From assembly GCF_965641715.1 (NCBI RefSeq), contig NZ_OZ282453.1: 64,000 nt of DNA. One strand, written 5' to 3'. Shown here piece by piece: positions 1,180-21,598 of the stretch (the first letter of the stretch is position 1; each line of letters begins with the position of its first letter). The stretch is from Escherichia coli. GTDB taxonomy: Bacteria > Pseudomonadota > Gammaproteobacteria > Enterobacterales > Enterobacteriaceae. The translations under genes were made by a program, and so were the position numbers. Below the pieces are notes generated by a model that was not told where the DNA came from, searched no databases, and saw nothing but the letters and a program-made list of their open reading frames with translations.

Positions 1180-3621
1180 ATGAGCAATAACGTCAGAATC
1201 GAGGTGCTGCTGAACGCAGTCGACCGGGCAAGCCGCCCGCTTAAAGCGATTCAGAACGCCAGCAAATCCCTGTCCGGTGATATCCGCAATTCACAAAAAA
1301 GCCTGCGCGAACTTAATGCGCAGGCGTCCCGTATTGACGGATTCCGCAAAGCCAGCGCACAGCTTGCCGTGACCGGTCACTCGCTTGAGAAAGCGAAACA
1401 GGAAGCGCAAGCCCTTGTCACGCAATTTAAAAACACCGAGCGCCCGACACGTGCGCAGGCGCAGGTGCTTGAATCGGCAAAGCGTGCCGCCGACGGGCTG
1501 CAGACGAAATACAACAGCCTAACTGAGTCTGTGAAACGCCAGCAACGCGAGCTCGGTGCTGTCGGGATTAATACCCGTAATCTGGCAAATGATGAGCGGG
1601 GGCTCAAATCGCGCATCAGTGAGACGACTGCGCAGCTCAATCGGCAGCGTGAGGCACTGGCGAAAGTCAGCGCACAGCAGGCAAAGTTAAGCCGGGTGAA
1701 AGCGCGGTATCAGGCCGGTAAATCGCTTGCCGGTAGCATGGCGGCGGCTGGCGCGGCCGGTGTCGGTATTGCGACAACAGGAACCATGGCCGGGGTCAAG
1801 CTGCTGACGCCGGGTTATGAATTTGCACAGAAAAACTCAAAGCTGCAGGCAGTGCTCGGTGTCGACAAACAGTCGCCTGAAATGCAGGCGCTGCGTAAAC
1901 AAGCGCGCCAGCTCGGTGACAATACCGCTGCCTCTGCCGATGATGCGGCGGGTGCGCAGATTATCATCGCGAAAAGCGGCGGTGATGCGGCGGCCATTCA
2001 GGCGGCGACGCCGGTCACACTGAATATGGCGCTGTCCAACAAGCGCACGATGGAAGAGAACGCCGCGCTGCTGACGGGCATGAAATCCGCTTTCCAGCTC
2101 TCTAACGATAAAGTCGCGCATATTGGCGATGTTCTCTCGATGACGATGAACAAAACCGCCGCTGACTTTGACGGGATGAGCGATGCGCTGACCTATACCG
2201 CGCCGGTGGCGAAAAATGCCGGGGTGAGTATCGAAGAAACCGCCGCGATGGTGGGGGCGCTGCACGATTCTAAAATCACCGGCTCGATGGCGGGTACAGG
2301 GAGCCGTGCCGTTCTGAGTCGCCTGCAGGCGCCGACCGGTAAAGCCTACGACGCCATCAAAGAGCTCGGCATTAAAACGAGCGACAGCAAAGGCAATACG
2401 CGCCCGATATTTTCCATCCTGAAGGAAATGCAGCGCAGTTTTGAGAAAAACAATCTCGGAACGGGTCAGAAAGCCGAATACATGAAAACCATTTTCGGTG
2501 AAGAAGCCAGCTCAGCGGCCGCTGTGCTGATGGCCGCCGCATCAAACGGCAAGCTCGACCAGCTCACCGCCGCGTTTAAAGCCTCGGACGGCAAGACTGA
2601 GGAGCTGGTTAAGGTTATGCAGGATAACCTCGGCGGCGACTTTAAAGAGTTTCAGTCAGCCTATGAGGCGGTTGGCACTGACCTGTTTGATCAGCAGGAG
2701 GGCTCACTGCGTAAGCTGACGCAGACGGCCACGCAATATGTGCTCAGGCTCGACGGCTGGATCCAGAAAAATAAAGGGCTGGCGACCACCATCGGCGTGG
2801 TGGTCGGGGGTGCGCTGGCGCTGATTGGTGTAATGGGCGGGATTGGCCTTGTCGCATGGCCGGTGGTAATGGGGATTAATGCCATCATTGCGGCGGCTGG
2901 CGTGCTCGGTGTGGTTTTCAGTACGGTTGGAGGCGCGATTGTCACGGCCATTGGCGCAATCAGCCTGCCGGTGCTGGCGGTTGCCGGTGCCGTGGTGGCC
3001 GGTGCGTTGCTGATCCGTAAATACTGGGAGCCGCTCGGTGCATTTTTCTCGGGCGTGGTGGAGGGACTGAAAGCCGCCTTTGCACCGGTGGGGGACATGT
3101 TTACCCCGCTCGCGCCGGTGTTTGACGCCATCGCTGAAAAGCTGGGTGTCGTCTGCCAGTGGTTTAAAGACCTGCTTGCGCCGGTGAAAGCCACGCAGGA
3201 CACGCTCTCCAGTTGCAAAAATGTCGGCGTTACTTTTGGTCAGGCGCTGGCTGATGCGCTGATGATGCCGCTCAAGATGTTTAACAGCCTGAGCGGCAAG
3301 GTCGGCTGGCTGCTGGAGAAACTCGGCGTTATCAAAAAAGAATCCAGCGACCTCGACCAGACCGCAGCGAAAGCGAATAAGGCGTCCCCGAATGGCGGGT
3401 ATATCCCTGCGACCGCAGGTTATGGCGGGTATCAGGCGTATCAGCCGGTCACAGCGCCCGCAGGCCTGTCTTATATCGACCAGAGCAAAAGCGAATACAA
3501 CATCAACCTGCAGGGCGGAGTCGCACCGGGCAGTGACCTTGACCGCCAGCTCCGTGACGCGGTCGACAAACTTGACCGCGAGAAACGTGCGCGTCAGCGA
3601 TCCAGTATGAGACTCGACTGA
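1180..3621 (+). CDS. P2-like phage tail tape measure protein (gpT family)
   Basis: 813-aa ORF; Ala/Gln/Lys-rich N-terminal half and long Gly/Ala/Val-rich hydrophobic segment; position between E/E' and U. Confidence 0.9.
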   Translation: MSNNVRIEVLLNAVDRASRPLKAIQNASKSLSGDIRNSQKSLRELNAQASRIDGFRKASAQLAVTGHSLEKAKQEAQALVTQFKNTERPTRAQAQVLESAKRAADGLQTKYNSLTESVKRQQRELGAVGINTRNLANDERGLKSRISETTAQLNRQREALAKVSAQQAKLSRVKARYQAGKSLAGSMAAAGAAGVGIATTGTMAGVKLLTPGYEFAQKNSKLQAVLGVDKQSPEMQALRKQARQLGDNTAASADDAAGAQIIIAKSGGDAAAIQAATPVTLNMALSNKRTMEENAALLTGMKSAFQLSNDKVAHIGDVLSMTMNKTAADFDGMSDALTYTAPVAKNAGVSIEETAAMVGALHDSKITGSMAGTGSRAVLSRLQAPTGKAYDAIKELGIKTSDSKGNTRPIFSILKEMQRSFEKNNLGTGQKAEYMKTIFGEEASSAAAVLMAAASNGKLDQLTAAFKASDGKTEELVKVMQDNLGGDFKEFQSAYEAVGTDLFDQQEGSLRKLTQTATQYVLRLDGWIQKNKGLATTIGVVVGGALALIGVMGGIGLVAWPVVMGINAIIAAAGVLGVVFSTVGGAIVTAIGAISLPVLAVAGAVVAGALLIRKYWEPLGAFFSGVVEGLKAAFAPVGDMFTPLAPVFDAIAEKLGVVCQWFKDLLAPVKATQDTLSSCKNVGVTFGQALADALMMPLKMFNSLSGKVGWLLEKLGVIKKESSDLDQTAAKANKASPNGGYIPATAGYGGYQAYQPVTAPAGLSYIDQSKSEYNINLQGGVAPGSDLDRQLRDAVDKLDREKRARQRSSMRLD

Positions 3622-3634
3622 GGGAGGGATAAAA

Positions 3635-4099
3635 ATGTTAATGGGGCTGGGCTTTTTCGTGTTTGAACGGCGCACCCTGCCGCATCAGTCAATGCAGTAT
3701 TCGAAGGACTACCGCTGGGTGTCAAATGACCGTATCGGAAAACCCCCGGCTTATCAGTATCTCGGGGAGGGGGAAACCTCGCGTACCCTGTCGGGCACGC
3801 TTTACCCTGAAATCACCGGCGGGCGTCTGTCACTGATGGCCATCGAACTGATGGCCGATGAGGGGCGCGCATGGCCGCTGATTGACGGAACCGGCATGAT
3901 CCACGGGATGTATGTCATCGATAAAGTGACTCACAACCACACCGAGTTATTCAGCGACGGCGCGGCTAAAAAAATCGAGTTTAGCCTGTCGCTTAAGCGG
4001 GTGGATGAATCCCTCGCGGCCATCTACGGCGACCTGAAAACGCAGGCTGATAATCTGGTCACGTCTGCCGGTAACTGGCTCGGGGGGCTGGCGGGATGA
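3635..4099 (+). CDS. P2-like phage tail protein (gpU family)
   Basis: 154-aa ORF immediately after tape measure and overlapping gpD start by 4 nt; P2 synteny. Confidence 0.8.
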   Translation: MLMGLGFFVFERRTLPHQSMQYSKDYRWVSNDRIGKPPAYQYLGEGETSRTLSGTLYPEITGGRLSLMAIELMADEGRAWPLIDGTGMIHGMYVIDKVTHNHTELFSDGAAKKIEFSLSLKRVDESLAAIYGDLKTQADNLVTSAGNWLGGLAG

Positions 4100-5259
4100 T
4101 AACGGGAATGACTATTCAGGCCGGGGCGCGCATTGCTCCTGATTTTATGCTCACGCTCGGTGGCGCAGATATCACACAGAATTTCAGCGACCGGCTTATC
4201 GGGCTGACCATGACCGACAATCGCGGATTCGAGGCTGACCAGCTTGATATCGAGCTCGATGATACCGATGGACTGGTCGAGCTGCCGCCGCGCGGGGCAT
4301 CGCTGACCCTGTGGCTGGGCTGGCAGGGCTCGGCGCTGATTAACAAAGGGAGTTTTACGGTTGACGAAATCGAGCACCGGGGCGCGCCTGACAGGCTGAC
4401 TATCCGGGGACGCAGTGCGGATTTTCGCGGGACGCTGAACTCGCGCCGCGAGCAGTCATGGCACGACACCACGCTCGGGGTGATTGTCGAGACTATCGCG
4501 CAGCGTAACAAACTGACGGCCAGCGTGGCTGATACCCTGAAAGCTGTTGCTGTGCCGCATATTGACCAGTCTCAGGAATCCGACGCGGCGTTTTTGTCCC
4601 GACTGGCGGATCGCAACGGGGCAACGGTTTCGGTCAAGGCCGGGAAATTGTTATTCCTGAAAGCCGGTAGCGCGATGACGGCCAGTGGTAAGGCCATCCC
4701 GCAAATGACCGTCGAACGCGGCGACGGCGACCGGCATCAGTTTGCCATAGCCGACCGCGAGGCATACTCCGGCGTAACCGCTAAATGGCTGCACACCAGA
4801 GACCCGAAACCGCAAAAGCAAAAGGTGAAGCTCAAGCGCAAACCCAAAGAGCAGCACCTGCGTGCGCTGCAGCACCCGAAGGTTGCTAAAACATCGGCAA
4901 AGGCTAAAAAGAAGAAGGTGCAGGAAGCGCGGGAAGGTGAGTATATGGCCGGTGAGTCCGACAATGTTCTGGAACTCACGACCATCTACGCGACAAAGGC
5001 GCAGGCCATGCGCGCAGCTCAGGCAAAGTGGGACAGGATACAGCGTGGGGTGGCGGAGTTTTCGATCACGCTCGCCACTGGCCGCGCTGATTTATTTCCT
5101 GAAACGCCGGTGGCAGTGAAAGGCTTTAAGCGCGTTATAGACGAGCAGGCGTGGATAATCAGTCGTGTGGTACACAGCCTCAACGGGAGCGGCTTCACGA
5201 CGGGCTTAGAGCTTGAGGTTAAGGTTTCTGATGTGGAGTATGAAAGCGAGGAAGTTTAA
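4096..5259 (+). CDS. P2-like phage tail protein D (gpD family)
   Basis: 387-aa ORF (same length as P2 gpD) with Lys-rich basic stretch; followed by ogr. K-12 retains only a remnant of this gene (yegZ) at this position. Confidence 0.85.
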   Translation: MITGMTIQAGARIAPDFMLTLGGADITQNFSDRLIGLTMTDNRGFEADQLDIELDDTDGLVELPPRGASLTLWLGWQGSALINKGSFTVDEIEHRGAPDRLTIRGRSADFRGTLNSRREQSWHDTTLGVIVETIAQRNKLTASVADTLKAVAVPHIDQSQESDAAFLSRLADRNGATVSVKAGKLLFLKAGSAMTASGKAIPQMTVERGDGDRHQFAIADREAYSGVTAKWLHTRDPKPQKQKVKLKRKPKEQHLRALQHPKVAKTSAKAKKKKVQEAREGEYMAGESDNVLELTTIYATKAQAMRAAQAKWDRIQRGVAEFSITLATGRADLFPETPVAVKGFKRVIDEQAWIISRVVHSLNGSGFTTGLELEVKVSDVEYESEEV

Positions 5260-5339: not shown

Positions 5340-5561
5340 ATGTTTCATTGTCCGAAATGCCATCATGCCGCCCACGCCCGCACGAGTCGCTATTTTACTG
5401 ATACCACAAAAGAGCGGTATCACCAGTGCACAAACATTAACTGCAGCTGCACGTTTGTGACCACTGAAACAGTCGAGCGTTTTATCGTGTCGCCGGGGGA
5501 AGTAGTACCCGCGCCGCCGCATCCGACATCATCAGGTCAGCAACAAATTCACTGGATGTGA
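5340..5561 (+). CDS. ogr: Ogr/Delta-family zinc-finger late-gene transcription activator
   Basis: 72-aa product MFHCPKCHHAAHARTSRYF...CTNINCSCTF with Cys4 zinc-finger spacing typical of P2 Ogr; ATG at 5340 inside track ORF 5316-5561. Confidence 0.9.
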   Translation: MFHCPKCHHAAHARTSRYFTDTTKERYHQCTNINCSCTFVTTETVERFIVSPGEVVPAPPHPTSSGQQQIHWM

Positions 5562-5571
5562 CAAACGAGAA

Positions 5572-5596
5572 AGCCCCGCGAATGCGGGGCTTTTTG
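5572..5596 (+). terminator. Rho-independent terminator downstream of ogr
   Basis: GC stem AGCCCCGC / GCGGGGCT with 4-nt loop followed by TTTTT, 10 nt after the ogr stop. Confidence 0.65.
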
Positions 5597-5866
5597 CAAC
5601 TTTTAGATCAGTTATGTTAAGTACATTTCCGTCGGCAAAGTGCCAGGAGCGGGTTCTAGAGAGTGACTAACGTTAGTTATATGTGTAAAATTCCTTAAAA
5701 ATAAGAAGGATATATATCCATGACAGCAATTGCATATTGGATTAACTGAGAATCAATTGAGAAATTTTTGGGGGGCAAAAAATAAACTAGCTAATTAAAT
5801 TTTTATAAATAACGAATATAAGACTGCAAGCCATTTAACAAAAGTTTATAAATAAAGGAGTCAGTT

Positions 5867-6718
5867 TTGAACAATATCCCCATATCTACTCAATGGACTT
5901 TAGACGCTACGGGTGAAGTTGGACGCTCATCAGTAAATTCTGTTTATATGATTATATGTCCTGCGACAGGCTCGAAAGGATCTGGTTTTTTAATAGATAA
6001 TGGGTTAATAGTAACGAACGAGCATGTTATCACTGGATGCTCTACAAATCAGATTTTCGCAATTTCAGCTTATGGACAGAAGATTCCAATTTCTCAAAAA
6101 TGGATAGATTCTGATCGCGATTTAGCTGTGCTGAGACCTGCCATTACCCAGACTGGTGGGCTAAGTATTGTTAAGGATAATGATCTTAAAGTTGGTGAAT
6201 CAGTAACAACTTGGGGATACCCATTAGGATACAACGGTCCTGCACCGTTACTATCCGTTGGTTATCTAGCAGGATTTAACTCATACCAAACCGCCAAGGG
6301 ACAAAAAAAACATCTAGTGGTAAATGGGGCATTTAACTCAGGAAATTCTGGTGGAGCTCTTTTAAAAGCTTCAGATAATAAAGTAATAGGTATTGTAGTG
6401 AGTAAGCATGCTCCTATCAGTCAATACCATCAATCAGCTATTGAAGCTTTGTCTGAAAATATGAGTGGCGTCACCTATACCGCTACTAATGACGCTGGAG
6501 AAACTAAAAGTTTTGTAGAATCTCAAATTGTAGCAGAATTATTGATTCATATGAGAAGTCTAACTCAAGTTATGATTGGAGAAGCAATTGCAGCAGAGGA
6601 ATTACTTTCGATGCTTAGCGAAATTGACTTGAGTCCACCACAATCTATGTCAAGAAATGCCTTATGTCATTGCGGGAGTGGAAAACGCTTCAAAGAATGT
6701 CATGGAAAGATATCCTAG
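5867..6718 (+). CDS. Prophage cargo protein: cytoplasmic HtrA/DegP-like (S1C, trypsin-fold) serine protease domain fused to C-terminal SEC-C zinc-binding motif
   Basis: 283-aa ORF with TTG start 6 nt after an AAGGAG Shine-Dalgarno. Motifs: GSGFLI...TNEHV (His about aa 53), DLAVL (Asp about aa 85), GNSGGAL (Ser about aa 161), as in the DegP/HtrA catalytic triad. C-terminus CHCGSGKRFKECHG matches the SecA SEC-C zinc motif. No signal peptide, no PDZ domain. Visibly AT-rich relative to flanks. Confidence 0.75.
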   Translation: MNNIPISTQWTLDATGEVGRSSVNSVYMIICPATGSKGSGFLIDNGLIVTNEHVITGCSTNQIFAISAYGQKIPISQKWIDSDRDLAVLRPAITQTGGLSIVKDNDLKVGESVTTWGYPLGYNGPAPLLSVGYLAGFNSYQTAKGQKKHLVVNGAFNSGNSGGALLKASDNKVIGIVVSKHAPISQYHQSAIEALSENMSGVTYTATNDAGETKSFVESQIVAELLIHMRSLTQVMIGEAIAAEELLSMLSEIDLSPPQSMSRNALCHCGSGKRFKECHGKIS

Positions 6719-6866
6719 TAAGTACTTATATCAGTCTGATAATGGCTCTTCAAATACAAAAGACTTCACTTACTCTGCCGTCATCTCTGCTCCTCGCTTA
6801 TTGCAGACGGTCAAAAGCTTACAAGCTGTTGACTAGATGTGTTCTTACATTGTCAGTTAAAACAAA

Positions 6867-6891
6867 AGCCCCGCAAATGCGGGGCTTTTTG
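6867..6891 (+). terminator. Rho-independent terminator downstream of the cargo gene (near-identical copy of the ogr terminator)
   Basis: Stem AGCCCCGC / GCGGGGCT, loop AAAT, then TTTTT; differs from the 5572-5596 hairpin essentially by one loop base. Confidence 0.65.
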
Positions 6892-6956
6892 TATCGATGT
6901 GGTCAATGTGTGGACATTGATAGAAATAAATCCATTTATTTCAGTAAGTTACATGC

Positions 6957-6983
6957 AAAAAATAAGCCCGTGTAAGGGAGATT
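6957..6983. other. P2-type attachment site core (prophage attR), identical to the 3' end of cyaR
   Basis: Sequence AAAAAATAAGCCCGTGTAAGGGAGATT matches the 27-nt P2 att core as I recall it; lies at the junction between prophage cargo and the host cyaR gene. Confidence 0.55.
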
Positions 6984-7043
6984 ACACAGGCTAAGGAGGT
7001 GGTTCCTGGTACAGCTAGCATTTTATGGGTTATGTTTTTCAGC
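6957..7043 (-). ncRNA. cyaR: CyaR (RyeE) Hfq-dependent sRNA
   Basis: Minus-strand sequence GCUGAAAAACAUAACCCAUAAAAUGCUAGCUGUACCAGGAACCACCUCCUUAGCCUGUGUAAUCUCCCUUACACGGGCUUAUUUUUU matches CyaR from memory, including the CCUCCU anti-SD loop and terminator; a TGTGA CRP half-site lies about 40 nt upstream. Confidence 0.8.
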
Positions 7044-7127
7044 GAAGCGGATGATAACCTTAATAAATGCAGCTGTATGTGATCGGTTTCTAAGAATTTT
7101 CCATCCGGGAAAAATAATCGAAATTAA

Positions 7128-8489
7128 TCACTTACCGTGGGGGTTACGCGTGGTTTCCCCGGAGAAATTACGCATCAGCAGCGCGTAATTTAGCTCAAGA
7201 TCCTGCGGCACCGGGAGCCACACAGTATAACCATCGCCTGGTGCTATCGGCATAGCTTCGCCTTTGGCGTTTTCCATGTGCTCAAGGGTAAAGTTAATGT
7301 TGCCTTGCGGCGTCATCAGCTCAAGGCTGTCGCCAACGGAGAATTTATTTTTCACCGCTACCGCCGCGAGGTCCCCCTTGCGCTCACCGGTAAACTCACC
7401 AACAAACTGCTGGCGGTCAGAAACCGAATAACCGTATTCGTAGTTCTGATAATCGTCGTGAGTATGACGACGCAGGAAACCTTCGGTATAGCCACGATGC
7501 GCCAGACCTTCCAGAGTTTCTAGCAGGCTGGTATCGAACGGTTTGCCCGCAGCGGCATCATCGATAGCTTTGCGGTAAACCTGTGCGGTGCGTGCGCAAT
7601 AGTAGAAAGATTTAGTACGGCCTTCGATTTTCAGCGAATGCACGCCCATTTTGGTCAGGCGTTCTACATGGGCGATGGCGCGCAGATCTTTCGAGTTCAT
7701 GATGTAAGTGCCGTGCTCATCTTCAAACGCGGTCATATACTCGCCCGGACGCTGGGCTTCTTCGATCATAAACACTTTGTCGGTTGGCGCGCCGATACCC
7801 AGCGTCGGCTCAACATTTTGCACCGGAATCGGCTCGTACTTGTGTACGATGTTGCCAACATCATCTTCTTTCCCTTCCTGGACGTTGTACTCCCAGCGGC
7901 AGGCGTTGGTGCAGGTACCCTGGTTCGGATCGCGCTTGTTGATATAGCCAGAGAGCAGGCAGCGACCGGAGTAGGCCATGCACAGTGCGCCGTGAACGAA
8001 GATCTCGATCTCCATATCCGGCACCTGATTGCGGATCTCTTCAATCTCTTCCAGCGACAGCTCGCGAGAGAGGATCACGCGGGTCAGGCCCATTTGCTGC
8101 CAGAATTTCACCGTTGCCCAGTTTACGGCGTTAGCCTGCACCGAGAGGTGGATCGGCATTTCAGGGAAGTGCTCACGCACCAGCATAATCAGCCCTGGAT
8201 CGGACATAATCAGCGCATCCGGCCCCATTTCCACCACCGGTTTCAGGTCACGGATAAAGGTTTTCAGCTTGGCGTTGTGCGGTGCAATGTTGACCACGAC
8301 ATAAAACTTTTTCCCCAGCGCGTGGGCTTCATTGATGCCGAGCTGAAGATTTTCGTGGTTGAATTCGTTGTTGCGCACACGCAGGGAGTAACGCGGCTGG
8401 CCCGCATAAACAGCATCTGCGCCATAAGCGAAAGCGTAACGCATATTTTTCAGCGTTCCCGCCGGGGAAAGGAGTTCCGGTTTAAACAT
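7128..8489 (-). CDS. rlhA: U32-family peptidase-like protein YegQ/RlhA (23S rRNA 5-hydroxycytidine synthase)
   Basis: 453-aa ORF recognised as E. coli YegQ (MFKPELLSPAGTLKNMRYAFAYGADAVYAGQPRYSLR...); conserved position next to cyaR. Confidence 0.9.
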   Translation of the reverse strand: MFKPELLSPAGTLKNMRYAFAYGADAVYAGQPRYSLRVRNNEFNHENLQLGINEAHALGKKFYVVVNIAPHNAKLKTFIRDLKPVVEMGPDALIMSDPGLIMLVREHFPEMPIHLSVQANAVNWATVKFWQQMGLTRVILSRELSLEEIEEIRNQVPDMEIEIFVHGALCMAYSGRCLLSGYINKRDPNQGTCTNACRWEYNVQEGKEDDVGNIVHKYEPIPVQNVEPTLGIGAPTDKVFMIEEAQRPGEYMTAFEDEHGTYIMNSKDLRAIAHVERLTKMGVHSLKIEGRTKSFYYCARTAQVYRKAIDDAAAGKPFDTSLLETLEGLAHRGYTEGFLRRHTHDDYQNYEYGYSVSDRQQFVGEFTGERKGDLAAVAVKNKFSVGDSLELMTPQGNINFTLEHMENAKGEAMPIAPGDGYTVWLPVPQDLELNYALLMRNFSGETTRNPHGK

Positions 8490-8591
8490 AATTCTCTCGT
8501 TCTGATGACAGGTCAGATCCGCTTCACCTGATGAAGCGGTTAGGGGAGTGCCCCCACTTTAAGGGCGGGCATTGTAGCGCAATCGGCGGGT

Positions 8592-8888
8592 TTAGCTCCA
8601 GTGTAAATGTCTGGTGGCGTCCTGGTTTTGGTTAAGGATACGAATGACGATAATTTCCCCTGGTGATTGCAGGAAATAAATTACGTGGCGTTCAAAAGGA
8701 AGAACAAAAATACCTTCGCCTAATTCAGGTCTGGGCGTACCTATATTATTGTTACTCAGAATCTGGAGAACGTCTGAAAGATGTTCCACATATCTGTCGG
8801 CTTGTGGTTCGCCGAAATGGTGATAACTGTAATACCAGATGCCTTCTAAATCTTCATTGGCTTTTGGCATGAGTTTAATAATACGCAC
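8592..8888 (-). CDS. ParE/RelE-superfamily type II toxin (ParE-like)
   Basis: 98-aa ORF with ParE-like features (...IVIRILNQNQD...); immediately downstream of, and 1 nt from, a ParD-like antitoxin gene. Start codon uncertain (GTG at 8888 or internal ATG, Met7). Confidence 0.7.
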   Translation of the reverse strand: MRIIKLMPKANEDLEGIWYYSYHHFGEPQADRYVEHLSDVLQILSNNNIGTPRPELGEGIFVLPFERHVIYFLQSPGEIIVIRILNQNQDATRHLHWS

Positions 8889-8889
8889 A

Positions 8890-9141
8890 TTATTTCCTTA
8901 TCCCTGCTTTCACCTTCCGTAAAAACGCGTCCTTTTCCCACGGCTGAGCTTCACCACTACTCAACCCTTCTGCAAGCATGTCACGTAACGCTTGCAGGCG
9001 AGACTCTGCTTGCTTTTCTCGAAGTAAGCGCAGTGACTCACGGATCACTTCGCTTTGGGTGCGATAGTCGCCGGATTCAATTAAGGACTCGATAAATTCA
9101 CGCAACTCATCGCCGAGATCAACCGTCATCGTTCTGGCCAT
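8890..9141 (-). CDS. ParD-like antitoxin (ribbon-helix-helix, CopG family)
   Basis: 83-aa ORF MARTMTVDLGDELREFIESLIESGDYRTQSEVIRESLRLLRE..., typical ParD N-terminal RHH; upstream partner of the ParE-like gene. Confidence 0.75.
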   Translation of the reverse strand: MARTMTVDLGDELREFIESLIESGDYRTQSEVIRESLRLLREKQAESRLQALRDMLAEGLSSGEAQPWEKDAFLRKVKAGIRK

Positions 9142-9384
9142 GTTTATGCTCTCCTGTAAGTAAAAATCTTACATCAGTGTATGTCATAAACCGGATAGCG
9201 TCACGAAAAGTATTAGAAGATATTTTGGCAGATGAACATGTTCAGGAGGATAAGCATGGAGATGTTAAACAAAGAAAGCACAATGAGTATTCATCAGTGT
9301 CCACTATTTTAATGGCGCAGGTAAATAAATAAGCGTTATTTGGAAATAAAGCCGGACGCCAACAATCCACGCCCGGCATCGTAA

Positions 9385-9717
9385 TTACGTATTGTCTTTC
9401 ACCGTCTGGCTTGTGCCATTGGCTTTAACGGAGGCAATTCCGGTTTCACGAGATTGCGCGGTGGCATACATCTGGCTGGAGCCGATAATTTGATGATTGG
9501 CGGCTTTCAGATTGAAATAGAATTTGCCGTTGCTTGCCGTTTTTTTCTCATAGCGTTCTTCTTGCGGGCTGTTGCTACGCACCGACGCGATGCCCTTTTC
9601 CGCAGAGGCTTTTGAAGTATACAGCTCGCTGGTGAGGATAGTCTCACCATTGCCCGCTTTTAGCACAAACCGGAACTGATTATCACTGCTCTTAGTGAGT
9701 TCAAACCAACCAGCCAT
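9385..9717 (-). CDS. yegP: UPF0339 family protein YegP (tandem DUF1508 repeats)
   Basis: 110-aa product MAGWFELTKSSDNQFRFVLKAGNGE... with internal duplication (...KKTASNGKFYFNLKAANHQ...); ATG inside track ORF 9385-9756. Confidence 0.85.
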   Translation of the reverse strand: MAGWFELTKSSDNQFRFVLKAGNGETILTSELYTSKASAEKGIASVRSNSPQEERYEKKTASNGKFYFNLKAANHQIIGSSQMYATAQSRETGIASVKANGTSQTVKDNT

Positions 9718-9907
9718 AATGACTCCTTGATTGAAATTGCGTATCGAAAACAGCATCTAAAGGTGCTGTTTACCGATTAAAGTATGAGCGATTTTCTGGT
9801 GCCTGCTAGGGCGGAGAGATAATGTCAGTTTGCTGACCATGCGTGGGATAATGTTGCCGGATCGGGTCTGAACGCCATCTCCGGCTAACAAAGTCATGTC
9901 GCTAAAA

Positions 9908-10630
9908 CTAAACGATGCGGCAGGCGTCGGCTTCCCAGCGGTAACCAACGCCGTAAACGGCGCGGATAAATGACTGTTCGGCGTCGAGAGATTCCAGCTT
10001 GCGGCGCAGGTTTTTAATGTGGCTGTCGATGGTGCGGTCGGTTACTACGCGGTAGTCGTCATAAAGATGATTGAGCAATTGCTCGCGGGAGAACACTTTT
10101 CCTGGTTCATGAGAGAGCGTTTTCAGCAGACGAAATTCCGCAGGCGTCAGGTCAAGCATTTTACCGCGCCATGAAGCCTGAAAACGACCTTCGTCGATAA
10201 TCAACGGGCTTTCAGCATCCTGTTGCTGCAACTCACGCTGCGGTTTGCAACGGCGCAAAATGGTTTTGACACGCGCTACCACTTCCCGTGGGCTGTACGG
10301 CTTGCAGATGTAGTCATCTGCGCCAATCTCCAGCCCCAGCAGGCGGTCGATCTCTTCGATTTTTGCTGTCACCATCACGATAGGAATGTCAGAAAAACGA
10401 CGAATTTCCCGGCACAGCGTCAAGCCATCGGTGCCAGGGAGCATCAGATCCAACAGGATCAGATCCGGTGGTGTCTGGCGCACATACGGCAGTACCTGAT
10501 CGCCGTGGCTGATAAGCGTCGGCGCATAGCTCGCAGCACGCAGATAATCAATGAGCAACTGCCCCAGCTTCGGTTCATCTTCCACGATCAAAATACGCGG
10601 TGTGTTTTCGTCGATTGGTAACTCGGTCAT
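9908..10630 (-). CDS. baeR: Two-component response regulator BaeR (OmpR family)
   Basis: 240-aa ORF with receiver domain ([18 protein letters not shown]...D...LMLPGTDG) and winged-helix C-terminus; overlaps baeS stop. Confidence 0.95.
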
Positions 10631-12030
10631 ACTTCTCTCTGTAAATCCCGTTCCAGCGGTAACTCTACTGTAATGCTTACCCCGCCAAAAGGCGAATGGG
10701 CAGCAATAATGCGGCCATTATGTGCTTCAACAATGTTCAGGCAAATCGCCAACCCCAGCCCGGAACCGCCGCTGGCACGGTTGCGGGAACCTTCGGTGCG
10801 ATAAAAACGTTCAAACAATTTTTGTAGCTGATCGTCACTGACACCTGGCGCACTGTCGGCAAAGGTCAGGCGCACCGTTTTGTCGTGCTGCTCGGCAGAG
10901 ATTTTCAGGCTGCCGCCGCTGTCAGTGTAGCGCAGGCTGTTTTCCAGTAAATTATTGAACAACTGCATTAAACGGTCGCGATCGCCAAATACGGTAATAC
11001 TGTCTGGCAGGGAAAATTGCAGTTTCAGGCCACGGCTGGCGAATCGTTCGCGAAATGCGCCGCCCGCCACTTCCAGCAGTGGGATCAAATCTACCGGTGC
11101 TTTTTGATAGGCGAGAGCGCCTTCATCAGACATCGACAACTGATGAAGATCGTCAACCAGTTTGGTCAGTGTACCGACCTCCGCCTGTAAAGACGCCACC
11201 GTCTCCGGCGTGAATTTGCGCACGCCATCCTGAATGGCTTCCAGTTCACCGCGCAGCACCGCTAATGGCGTACGCAGTTCGTGAGAAATATCGGCCATAA
11301 AATCGCGCCGCATTTGCTGGTTTTTCTCCAGCGTGCTGGCGAGCTGGTTGAAGTCTTGCGCCAGTTTGCCCAGTTCATCTTCACTGGTGGGCGTTACGCG
11401 GGTAGTGAAATCGCCCGCCGCCAGTTTGTGCGTGCCGTCCACCAGCCGTTTGACCGGGGCCAAAAGACCACGCGCCAGCAGAAAGGTGGCGAGCGCCGCG
11501 AGTAACGTTGCCAGGGCGACAATCAGCCAGCTGGTTTGCCGCTGTTGTTTATCGAAATTGATATCAGTATTGCGCGTTAACCGCTCAACGGGGGAGGCGA
11601 TCACCGCGCCAACTTCCGCACCGTTGACCAGAATGGGTCGCCGTGTACCGTCAGGTGGAATCGGCGCTCGCGGACCAACCAGCACTTTGTTGTTTTGATC
11701 AACCACCCAGAACTGGGTACGCCAGCCGTGCGGTGGCATACCCGGGCCGGGTTTATCTTCCGAATTATCGTGTTCAAATGAACGCAGGATCTGAAAGACA
11801 AAGCGATCATTGTTGCGCAGGAAGCGCCAGTTACCATGCTGCGCATACTGCTCGCCAAGCGCATCACTTAACAGTTGTAATCGCTGTTCATTACCATGCT
11901 TGATGTAATCAATAAAGCCACGCTCAAAACTGATACGCACCGCCCAGTGCATACTGATCAGCAAGACAATGCAGGTGGCGAAAATCGCCAGAAACAGTTT
12001 GCCGGTAATACCGGGTCGCCAGAACTTCAT
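10627..12030 (-). CDS. baeS: Envelope-stress sensor histidine kinase BaeS
   Basis: 467-aa ORF with two TM segments, HAMP, H-box ([11 protein letters not shown]) and ATPase domain; in mdtABCD-baeSR operon. Confidence 0.95.
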
Positions 12031-19643: not shown

Positions 19644-20890
19644 CAGGAGCGAGCTCCTTTTTTCGCGTATTCGCGGCTGGTGGCTTTCTCTTCCGGAGTG
19701 GTGGCGCTCTGGGCTTCCACCACTTCCACTTTCGCCCCTTCGGTCAGGCGATCAATGCCGTCTGTCACCACGCGATCGCCCGCAGAAATACCTGCGCGGA
19801 TCACCACTTTCTGACTGTCCTGAATGCCCGGCGTCACCAGATGTTTGCTGACCTTGTTTTCGCTATTCAGCACCCAGACAAAATGGCCTTCATTGCCCAT
19901 TTGCAGGGCGGCGGTGGGGATCACTACGGCGTTTTGTTCGGTGTCGACTAACATGCGCGCGTTAACAAACTGATTGGGAAACAGCGCATCATCCTGATTA
20001 TTAAAGCGTGCTTTCACTTTAATCGTACCGGTAGTGGCATCGATTTGGTTATCGAGACTTAACAGCGTGCCTTCACTTAATTTCTTCGAGTTGGTGCGAT
20101 CCCAGGCTTCTACCACCAGCGGTTTTCCGGCTTTTTGCGCCTGCACAACGGTAGCGATATCGCTTTCCGGCAGGGTAAAGAGCAAATCGATAGGATGCGT
20201 CTGGGTGATCACCACAATTCCGGTGGTATCACCACTGGAGATTTGGTTACCAACATCAACCTGCTTGAGACCAACGCGACCATCGACTGGTGCGGTGATG
20301 CGGCTCCAGTCGAGTTGCAGCTGTGCGCTGGCGACGCTTGCTTCATCAGCCTTAATGGTGCCTTCGGTTTCACTGACCAGCGCTTGTTGGGCATCCAGTT
20401 CCTGACGAGATACGAGATTGGTTTTTACCAGTTGTTGATAACGCGCCAGGTCACGGCGGGCGTTGGCAAGCGTGGCTTTATCTTTTGCCAGTTGGCCCTG
20501 GGCTTGTGCTAATGCAACTTTGAACTGGCTGGGGTCAATTTCTGCCAGTAAATCGCCTGCTTTGACCTGCTGGCCTTCCTGGAAATGTAACGCCATCAAC
20601 TGACCATCTACGCGGCTGCGCACCGTAACGGTGTTAGCAGCGGTAATGGTGCCAAGCCCGGTGAGGTAACGCGGAACTGCCTGTTCTACGGCGGTCGCCG
20701 CCTGAACCGGGGCTAATGGGCCGGAACGCATACCACGGCGACCACCCGCTGGCGATTGCTGCGCTTGTTTCGTCGCCCCTGGGGCTGCACTCTGGGAGTC
20801 ATTGCGGCCTTGCCAGAACCAGAATGCGGCGATGGCGGCGATAACCACCACGATTACGATTACCCAACGGGATTTATAACTACCTTTCAT
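19643..20890 (-). CDS. mdtA: Periplasmic adaptor (membrane fusion) protein MdtA
   Basis: 415-aa product starting [26 protein letters not shown]...; ATG at 20890 inside longer track ORF 19643-21037; overlaps mdtB start by 1 nt. Confidence 0.95.
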
Positions 20891-20943
20891 CGTTAAGAGT
20901 TTCTCTTCCTGAAACGTTTCGCGGAATGATACTAGTGTAGCCA

Positions 20944-20961
20944 GCCAATAAGGGAGAAAAA
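20944..20961 (-). promoter_or_regulatory. Candidate BaeR box in the mdtA promoter
   Basis: Minus-strand TTTTTCTCCCTTATTGGC about 55-70 nt upstream of the mdtA ATG; matches the BaeR consensus TTTTTCTCCATDATTGGC (as I recall it) at about 15/18 positions. Confidence 0.5.
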
Positions 20962-21129
20962 TGGAGGAATTATGAAACACTATCGGGAATCGTCTGAATG
21001 GCGGGCACATTTGCGAGCACGCATCCAGTAATAACACAGGAAACTATTTTATCTACGCGTTAGCGATAGACTGCTTGCATGGCGAAAGGAGGTAAGCCGA
21101 CGATTTCAGCGGGACGCTGAAACGGGAAA

Positions 21130-21270
21130 GCCCCTCCCGAGGAAGGGGCCATAAATAAGGAAAGGGTCATGATGAAGATACTCATCATCGTGGTGCTCTT
21201 AGTGATTAGCTACCCAGCATACTAAGACTACCAGGGCGGGGGAACCCCCGCTCTACCCTCACTCCTGAAA
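21130..21270 (-). ncRNA. Sib-family antisense sRNA (antitoxin), copy 1; boundaries approximate
   Basis: Inferred from the Ibs/Sib architecture: Sib RNAs are about 140 nt and fully complementary to the ibs ORF on the opposite strand; ends not determinable from sequence alone. Confidence 0.4.
21169..21225 (+). CDS. Ibs-family type I toxin peptide, copy 1 (MMKILIIVVLLVISYPAY)
   Basis: 18-codon ORF with ATGATG start and hydrophobic core, hand-translated from the repeat unit; not in ORF track (below size cutoff). Confidence 0.6.
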   Translation: MMKILIIVVLLVISYPAY

Positions 21271-21457
21271 GTATGCCTTCACGTTCAGAATGTCAATCCG
21301 CAGGCTTTGCAGTCTGCGATCCTGCCAGCAAATATTCTTTGCGAGACGTTACGCAATAATCACACTTGAAACTATTTTATCCGCAAGTCAGCGATAGACT
21401 GCATACAGGGCGAAAGGAGGTAAGCCGAAGATTTCAGCGGGACGCTGAAACGGGAAA

Positions 21458-21598
21458 GCCCCTCCCGAGGAAGGGGCCTTAAATAAGGAAAGGGTCATGA
21501 TGAAGTGGATCATCATCGTGGTGCTCTTAGTTATTAGCTTGCCGGCTTACTAAGTCATCAAAGCGGGGGAAACCCCGCTCTACCCTCACTCCTGAAAG
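21458..21598 (-). ncRNA. Sib-family antisense sRNA, copy 2; boundaries approximate
   Basis: As copy 1, by repeat periodicity. Confidence 0.4.
21497..21553 (+). CDS. Ibs-family type I toxin peptide, copy 2 (MMKWIIIVVLLVISLPAY)
   Basis: 18-codon ORF at the equivalent position of repeat unit 2. Confidence 0.6.
   Translation: MMKWIIIVVLLVISLPAY

Follow-up and report, generated by a model that had tools for sequence, protein, structure and literature searches.

Trypsin-like proteases activate metallo-β-lactamase (MBL) pro-nucleases in the defence systems Hachiman and AVAST (Tuck et al., PMC12799240), and in type XI retrons such a protease is fused to the reverse transcriptase (RT; Mestre et al., PMC7736814). 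SEC-C domains are known from SecA and AscA, which use them to bind SecB and ribosomes (10.1101/613315, 10.1101/2020.07.21.215244), and the motif recurs in Rugutis, a validated single-gene defence protein of lactococcal plasmids (PMC11381338), and in E2DP, a DefensePredictor candidate from E. coli (PMC13092281 supplement). Here, we describe a gene in which the two modules meet. In a window of 64,000 nt from Escherichia coli (the whole stretch of DNA analysed; assembly GCF_965641715.1, contig NZ_OZ282453.1; positions are 1-based), a P2-like prophage carries, between its last conserved gene ogr and its attachment site, a single gene for a 283-aa protein (RefSeq WP_001059829.1) that is predicted to be a catalytically intact, cytoplasmic, PDZ-less serine protease of the HtrA (S1C) type and that ends in a SEC-C motif. 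Judged by its borders and its distribution, the block that holds the gene (5598-6863) is a unit of one gene, complete in itself and horizontally mobile, a so-called 'moron', inserted at the ogr terminator. A role in defence is a credible candidate function, suggested by the association of the gene and its relatives with places where defence genes are found.

Phage P2 carries old, tin and fun as cargo or exclusion genes, and Lit of e14 is a zinc metalloprotease that aborts infection. With these genes, and with PifA of F, the window gene shares the status of a single accessory gene in a variable slot of a temperate element. Lit, as a zinc metalloprotease, has no similarity to the window protein, and the PADLOC model for Lit did not match it.

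A trypsin-fold protease with a SEC-C tail

RefSeq lists the protein as a 'trypsin-like peptidase domain-containing protein'. Its Pfam matches are Trypsin_2 at residues 38-176 (1.5e-19), Trypsin (8e-8) and, over the whole length of the model (positions 1-19 of 19), SEC-C at residues 263-281 (6.2e-7); neither a PDZ nor a reverse transcriptase domain was matched in the 283 residues. Trypsin_2 and SEC-C matches are what a preliminary description of the locus, made from the sequence without database searches, had led one to expect, and the HtrA-like catalytic signatures named there were confirmed, as H53, D85 and S161 are invariant across 53 relatives. An AlphaFold2 (AF2) model of the protein reaches a pLDDT of 84. 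Foldseek likewise gave trypsin folds: in AFDB50 it retrieved members of the same family only, unnamed and entered as 'serine protease', and in a viral structure library it found generic trypsin folds only.

The preliminary description also placed a linker of about 90 aa between the protease and the tail. This had to be revised, since residues 180-252, among the best-conserved of the protein family, comprise the end of the protease fold and an invariant strand-helix. According to the model and an alignment with DegS and DegQ, residues 172-232 finish the fold with a VIGIVVS strand, an extra helix (186-196), a GVTYTA strand and a C-terminal helix (218-232). The 51 residues past the fold are modelled as a strand, a helix and the SEC-C knuckle. 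The added strand and helix (residues 233-252, T-QVMIGEAI-AAEELLSML) make up the strongest invariant motif of the family, in which Q234, V235, I237, G238 and E239 do not vary among the 53 relatives; DSSP assigns the strand to residues 235-242 and the helix to residues 243-252 of the model, and the pair aligns with the start of the PDZ domain in E. coli DegS and DegQ. A different reading, with residues 184-233 as an insert of about 50 aa in loop L2 and QVMIGEAI as the last barrel strand, was overturned by the same alignment, in which GVTYTA is the last barrel strand and QVMIGEAI lies outside the fold. Ahead of the protease domain, an N-terminal helix (residues 5-25, IPxSTQWTLDAxGxxGR) is conserved as well.

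The C-terminal SEC-C motif, also noted in the preliminary description, reads CHCGSGKRFKECHG in full and has the putative metal ligands C267, C269, C278 and H279 in an arrangement of the CxC-x8-C[HC] type (CHCGSGKRFKECH, residues 267-279), together with the conserved Gly and basic residues; the metal-binding motif of SecA reads CPCGSGKKYKQCHG. SecA, AscA (YecA) and YchJ all share the motif with the window protein, and its C-terminal position is that seen in SecA and YecA. In the window its carrier is a protease, not a translocation ATPase or chaperone. NCBIfam and PADLOC matches that involve only the tail are to YchJ-like and E2 proteins. Like the window gene, Rugutis and E2DP are encoded on mobile DNA as one-gene units and bear the SEC-C motif at a terminus, but neither has any similarity to the window protein beyond the motif of about 20 residues, neither contains a protease, and the motif of Rugutis is N-terminal.

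The comparison with HtrA, DegP, DegQ and DegS (MEROPS S1C, Trypsin_2) is similarly two-sided. The chymotrypsin-fold domain, the His-Asp-Ser triad and the GNSGG loop are shared, yet the window protein has neither a PDZ domain nor a signal peptide, carries the extra helix 186-196 after the VIGIV strand, continues with a strand-helix where the PDZ domain would begin and then with the SEC-C tail, and is mobile cargo instead of a conserved envelope stress gene. None of the HtrA-type models of NCBIfam comes near its cut-off (50-60 bits where 250-800 are required), the best being MarP_fam with 60.4 bits (cut-off 250), while degP_htrA_DO reaches 50 bits (cut-off 416). By these measures, the protein is a relative of the HtrA protease domain and not a canonical HtrA.

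Among immune systems, Hachiman (HamMAB), AVAST type 1, Lamassu-protease and retron type XI likewise employ a cytoplasmic, PDZ-less trypsin-like domain. The best PADLOC matches are to RT-Protease_XI (7e-21, covering profile positions 334-495 of 506), LmuA (5e-7) and HamA1 (8e-7), all of them in the protease domain only, to which the matches to Avs1b and to PDC-M35A, part of a multi-gene candidate system (47 bits, E 6e-13), are also confined; the locus shows no partner genes. The systems named have their protease joined to RT, HamA, LmuA or a STAND NTPase as the sensor or core protein, whereas the window protease stands alone, and where nuclease-protease pairs have an upstream MBL pro-nuclease, the 1.27-kb unit of the window has no partner gene. 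The remark in the preliminary description that the architecture is not a named defence system thus holds for PADLOC-DB 2.0.0. The combination of protease and SEC-C is described by none of the NCBIfam families, PHROG annotations and Pfam architectures. Nor did we find a paper on phages in which SEC-C is combined with a protease of the trypsin or HtrA kind, although screening papers on integrons and P2 cargo lay outside this search and prior testing is possible; WP_001059829 was not found in the portions examined of the DefensePredictor and Vassallo 2022 supplements.

That the window protein lacks a signal peptide, as first described, is borne out by its polar N-terminus and by an open reading frame (ORF) that is not extendable upstream. 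The gene starts with TTG, 6 nt past a Shine-Dalgarno (SD) sequence AAGGAG (5855-5860), and an in-frame TAA at 5849-5851, 5 codons ahead of the TTG, rules out a longer N-terminus; the start itself is confirmed by the conserved N-terminal helix. In every one of eight or nine contexts from the clade of SEC-C-bearing relatives, the TTG start (GTG once) and a GGAG SD sequence are kept (starts at 5867 in the window, 8001 in loci L002, L018, L005 and L010, 8016 in L021, 7001 in L034, 6920 in L032 and ~7028 in L031), which fits selection for low expression. Gene callers often miss this start in favour of an ATG further upstream or of an internal one, from which '256-aa' versions arise, and owing to the non-ATG start the 256-aa annotations of homologues are to be regarded as gene-calling artefacts. 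Against copies in other mobile elements, dN/dS is 0.05-0.18; the 283-aa gene is under purifying selection.

A profile search of 1.84 billion cluster representatives (E<=1e-30) delimits a family of only 218 clusters. Of its 56 full-length representatives, 37 have a signal-peptide-like N-terminal extension, 14 have no extension and 5 have a non-hydrophobic one. The cytoplasmic, PDZ-less state is therefore a property of the window protein, as the preliminary description had it, and not the general state of the family, about two thirds of whose clusters bear signal peptides. The SEC-C tail is present in 26 of the 120 closest relatives and a signal peptide in at least 11 of them; none of the 120 combines the two. 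Members of the SEC-C clade are 65-90% identical, and those with names belong to the Gammaproteobacteria (Escherichia, Klebsiella, Yersinia, Vibrio, Microbulbifer and Pseudidiomarina). Given that some two thirds of the family clusters have signal peptides, the cytoplasmic SEC-C form is, on this distribution, a derived clade borne by mobile elements.

Relatives differ in what follows the strand-helix of residues 233-252: some end there, some continue with SEC-C and some with TPR repeats. SEC-C gives way to a long tail, helical or made of TPR repeats, in P0142 (Trypsin_2 plus three TPR_12 repeats), P0105, P0072 (with an additional insertion of ~110 residues within the protease domain), P0054 and P0147. 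To judge from these relatives, addressing or sensing modules are swapped in the stretch past the strand-helix, and the exchange of SEC-C for TPR repeats fits the tail being a swappable adaptor or sensor. Residues 182-257 as the sole query retrieved 13 fragmentary proteins, which are uninformative on other architectures.

The ogr-att slot of P2-like prophages

An accessory, AT-rich block of 1.3 kb between the ogr terminator and the P2 att core had been proposed from the sequence. It measures 1.27 kb (5598-6863), G+C content (GC) is 33-40% over 5600-7000 as compared with 55-62% in the prophage tail genes, and the distance from ogr to cyaR is 1,398 bp in the window as against 101 bp from ogrK to cyaR in K-12 (Table 1). 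On both strands of the block, the protease gene is the sole credible ORF, and the earlier account of a single gene with its SD sequence stands. A hidden partner gene was considered and rejected: neither strand of 5598-6863 holds a credible second ORF, and no neighbour recurs.

The window starts within the tail module of the prophage, as seen from the ORF list and a comparison with RefSeq. Directly after D, the same prophage in strain WP2-S18-ESBL-07 has its ogr gene annotated as 'DNA-binding transcriptional regulator' in RefSeq. At the other border, the att core is assigned by the core sequence of P2, and the stretch at ~6957-6983 is what we take to be that core. The arm and core together are 92-94% identical to the corresponding stretch of other P2-like prophages at yegQ/cyaR, and the K-12 annotation puts the border of its cryptic prophage inside the cyaR 3′ end.

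Table 1. Features of the window around the protease gene of the P2-like prophage
Feature	Position	Strand	Remarks
Tape measure gene	1180-3621		P2-like tail module
U	3635-4099		P2-like tail module
D	4096-5259		P2-like tail module
ogr (P2 late-gene activator)	5340-5561	+	Last conserved prophage gene ahead of the cargo; ORF
ogr terminator hairpin, copy 1	5570-5598	+	G+C-rich with T-run; terminator scan; left border of insert
AT-rich 5′ non-coding region of cargo unit	5598-5866	+	GC 0.33; SD AAGGAG at 5855-5860
283-aa protease gene	5867-6718	+	RefSeq WP_001059829.1
HtrA-type chymotrypsin-fold protease domain (residues ~26-232)	5942-6562	+	H53, D85, S161 in GNSGG
Strand-helix past the protease fold (residues 233-252)	6563-6622	+	Conservation, DSSP, DegS/DegQ alignment
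SEC-C motif (residues 263-281)	6653-6709	+	Pfam SEC-C
Terminator hairpin, copy 2	6864-6893	+	Terminator scan; right border of insert
P2 attP arm and ~27-bp putative att core	6894-6983 (core ~6957-6983)		Core overlaps cyaR 3′ end
cyaR small RNA (sRNA), host side of attR	6960-7045	-	Rfam RF00112, 100.7 bits, E 2.4e-20
yegQ	7128-8489	-	

Other P2-like prophages at the same chromosomal site, with which the hairpin regions were aligned, show what the slot looks like with different contents. In UTAK-6, ogr is followed by one hairpin and then at once by the att arm, i.e. the slot is empty; EC11 (L012) has an insert with an 86-aa ORF bracketed by two hairpin copies; and 30EVA2 and HUE1 have a TM2-domain gene between ogr and att. 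The second hairpin of the window (6864-6893) is near-identical to the first and to the single copy of UTAK-6, and one copy is what cargo-free relatives hold. With two cargo inserts each bracketed by hairpin copies and the empty slot having one, the ogr terminator hairpin looks like the recombination point of the slot. Hence, the earlier idea of an autonomous 'moron' with its own terminator survives in part: the unit is a mobile single gene, and the supposed terminator of its own is a second copy of that of ogr. The preliminary description also asked whether the gene is restricted to this slot and replaced by other cargo in relatives. The slot is indeed empty or filled with other cargo there, while a restriction of the gene to it is contradicted by its presence in other prophages, integrons and islands.

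In the literature, the cargo hotspots of P2 are the A-Q interval (old/tin) and Z/fun (PMC9519451, PMC9122126). On the comparison above, the ogr-att junction is a third, smaller slot distinct from these two, and the insert is accessory cargo in a variable slot. The protease block is present in 34 of 5,426 complete E. coli genomes (0.6%), in all of them chromosomal and at least 99.8% identical, and many of the listed carriers are clinical isolates with strain names that point to New Delhi metallo-β-lactamase (NDM) or extended-spectrum β-lactamase (ESBL) resistance. This rarity, together with mobile-element contexts throughout, speaks against the gene being a housekeeping gene of the core genome, the alternative that the preliminary description had itself raised.

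The same prophage in WP2-S18-ESBL-07 (L036, the part upstream of the window) has cargo elsewhere. Its A-Q hotspot (7730-11474) contains, besides a DUF3850 gene and an ORF of 76 aa, the genes for a DUF3696 ABC-ATPase and for the 370-aa partner of the latter, the ATPase having PADLOC matches to NsnB (4e-55), PDC-M55A and AriA-like models; a 328-aa hypothetical gene lies between S and V (20502-21488), and the Z/fun slot is empty. On the host side of the window, between yegQ and yegP, genes for a ParE/RelE-family toxin (8592-8888, minus strand) and a ParD antitoxin (8890-9141, minus strand) are present that K-12, 30EVA2 and HUE1 lack at the same position, and the pair is a separate small accessory insertion.

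Genomic surroundings of the relatives

Nine independent contexts of the SEC-C clade were examined, the ogr-att slot of the window included. The relatives found as single-gene cargo in prophages, integron cassettes and an integrative element have identities of 72-90%. In Klebsiella michiganensis, the gene lies at the end of a lambdoid prophage, adjoining host yedK and 2 kb from a TIR-domain gene, and ~220 bp upstream as well as 130 bp downstream were transferred along with it; the upstream ~220 bp belong to the 5598-5866 region of the window and are thus common to two different prophage types. A promoter scan of this 5′ region gave sigma-70-like matches that are weak and not above chance. The Yersinia copy is found on the opposite strand of a P22-portal prophage, between lambda-P-type replication genes and the lysis cassette, and a further copy lies at the end of a prophage with a Mu-like tail that is also represented in IMG/VR.

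The gene is not limited to prophages. In Vibrio parahaemolyticus, a 72% identical copy forms a single-gene cassette of the chromosomal integron, where 130-nt attC repeats (L005, 7367-7496 and 8849-8978; five copies in 7 kb) surround the gene (8001-8861) and the neighbouring cassettes vary from strain to strain. It resembles in this respect the defence cassettes of integrons, a compartment in which small defence systems are reported to abound (Getz 2025, Darracq 2025 and Kieffer 2025, as cited in PMC12614218). The same Vibrio protein is also encoded beside the integrase of a K139/P2-related prophage (L009), inside the int-cI interval, which in K139-like Vibrio prophages is an anti-phage hotspot (Rousset 2022, PMC9122126). 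Apart from attC, the V. parahaemolyticus array contains repeats (D2, D3 and D5; 7467-7982 and 11626-11889) in the 5′ untranslated parts of the protease cassette and of an acetyltransferase cassette, which could be a common promoter or regulatory element.

On a chromosomal island (L031, 4796-7882), a homologue of PifA (PADLOC 1e-99) is followed after 39 nt by a 75% identical copy of the SEC-C protease, the two genes possibly forming one operon; a type III restriction-modification (RM) system (REase_III 2e-174) is 4 kb away, and CsrA is present, with CcdAB and ParDE following. Other copies are on an integrative and conjugative element (ICE) with a TrwC relaxase, a DUF3800 protein and an integrase, on an integrase-bearing island with a Mom-like gene and, in addition to these nine contexts, on an island of small hypothetical genes in Microbulbifer.

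Members without the SEC-C tail extend this list. One is flanked by genes for Cas1 and for a family-B DNA polymerase (L015, 5196-12453), a pairing that resembles a casposon-type self-synthesising transposon; others are beside IS91 and a group II intron or in an archaeal-type integrated element. Relatives with signal peptides occur beside terminase genes of alphaproteobacterial proviruses, in one of which (L026) a small gene with a lipoprotein-like signal (LSLTAC; 6728-7144) comes directly after the homologue and adjoins the genes for the small and large terminase.

In the contexts examined, no partner gene recurs beside the homologues, and an MBL gene adjoins none of them. When 25 neighbour genes were analysed with PADLOC, clear matches were obtained for the type III RM system, PifA, the TIR-domain protein and an ABC-ATPase.

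Candidate roles of the protease

The reading that we tentatively prefer, and to which we give slightly less than an even chance, is phage exclusion or abortive infection by a cytoplasmic protease that is latent and docks through its tail. The protein would be made at a low level in the lysogen, as its conserved TTG/GTG start suggests, and would stay latent like other HtrA proteases. The SEC-C tail may hold it at a defined site in the cytoplasm, for which ribosomes or SecB are candidates because SecA and AscA (YecA) bind both through their SEC-C domains. Upon infection, the protease would then cleave a phage protein or a host protein that the phage needs, and phage development would halt.

Several observations weigh against this. 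The gene comes with no recognisable sensor or partner, and no restraint on a free cytoplasmic protease is evident; its matches in PADLOC-DB 2.0.0 are to single domains and no system model fits. Roughly two thirds of the clusters in the wider family have signal peptides, and exported members also occur in proviruses, which implies that a cytoplasmic defence mechanism would be neither family-wide nor ancestral. No relative was found among 50,697 phage records or the PLSDB plasmids when these were searched at the DNA level and with tblastn. As for the surroundings, location in a prophage slot or an integron fits many non-defence functions of cargo equally well, and most neighbours at the other loci have no PADLOC match; with most neighbour genes lacking an assigned function, no statistical enrichment of defence genes can be claimed.

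The strongest of the alternatives, though we consider it unlikely, is that the protease serves the mobile element itself, be it in counter-defence, in host takeover, by cleaving the repressor of a competitor or in post-segregational addiction. A protease is a plausible means of inactivating host proteins, the gene is cargo of many unrelated elements (prophages, integrons and an ICE, with a SEC-C-less relative on the casposon-like element), and genes for lysogenic conversion and anti-defence also occur at prophage ends. Yet sedentary integron cassettes and a chromosomal island with RM, PifA and toxin-antitoxin genes are host-side contexts in which anti-defence genes would not be expected; an antitoxin-like partner is seen in none of the nine contexts; and the gene, placed past the ogr terminator, belongs to neither the early nor the late operons of the phage.

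Somewhat less probable still is a host-fitness function unrelated to phages, for example that of a cytoplasmic protease for quality control or regulation whose substrates are nascent or SecB-bound proteins, with an effect on envelope biogenesis, stress tolerance or virulence. The homology to HtrA quality-control proteases is in line with it, as are the links of SecA and AscA/YecA, by way of the SEC-C motif, to SecB and ribosomes in the export pathway and the seemingly exported nature of most family members. Such a function is harder to reconcile with the sporadic distribution of the gene (carriers make up 0.6% of the complete E. coli genomes, and 1.84 billion cluster representatives yield ~218 clusters), and with its constant position on or beside mobile elements, with no conserved housekeeping neighbourhood among the loci examined.

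More speculatively, and with a rather low probability in our estimate, the whole family could be a protease 'chassis' with exchangeable addressing devices, namely a signal peptide at the N-terminus or, at the C-terminus, a TPR sensor or SEC-C. The SEC-C tail would here mimic the SecA domain and park the latent protease at the ribosome exit site or at SecB, so that nascent or unfolded proteins are cut during infection, and the ogr-att junction would be a third, as yet undescribed cargo hotspot of P2-like phages. Massively translated phage proteins and the precursors of outer-membrane phage receptors are possible targets. Such a defence would turn the machinery of protein targeting to its own use.

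Export of the window protein, whose periplasmic substrates might then be phage receptors or the proteins that phages eject, is very improbable. It would match the signal-peptide-like N-termini of 37 of the 56 full-length representatives and the exported homologues that alphaproteobacterial proviruses encode beside a lipoprotein gene; the TAA 5 codons ahead of the TTG, however, bars any upstream extension of the polar N-terminus, no protein among the 120 closest relatives has SEC-C together with a signal peptide, and in SecA, YecA and YchJ such Cys/His metal-binding motifs are cytoplasmic. Least probable of all, and in effect refuted by the comparisons, is an ordinary gene of the P2-like phage for lysogeny control, morphogenesis or lysis, since despite its place inside the prophage borders and right after the late activator ogr, the gene is missing from otherwise collinear P2-like prophages at the same site, is found in just 34 of 5,426 genomes, differs from the prophage in GC (39% against 55-60%), lies past a terminator and recurs in unrelated phage types and in integrons.

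Should the defence role prove false, the gene would be a rare, uncharacterised accessory protease. Should it prove true, the unit would be a one-gene immune system with a free-standing protease as its only enzyme, set apart from the defence systems compared here, whose trypsin-like proteases are all fused to sensor or core proteins. The SEC-C tail would gain a function outside protein export, of interest as the motif recurs, unexplained, on at least two other defence proteins. For P2-like prophages, the ogr-att junction would join the two established hotspots as a place to seek new systems, and the traffic of the gene between prophages, integrons and defence islands would provide a compact example of how such cargo circulates.

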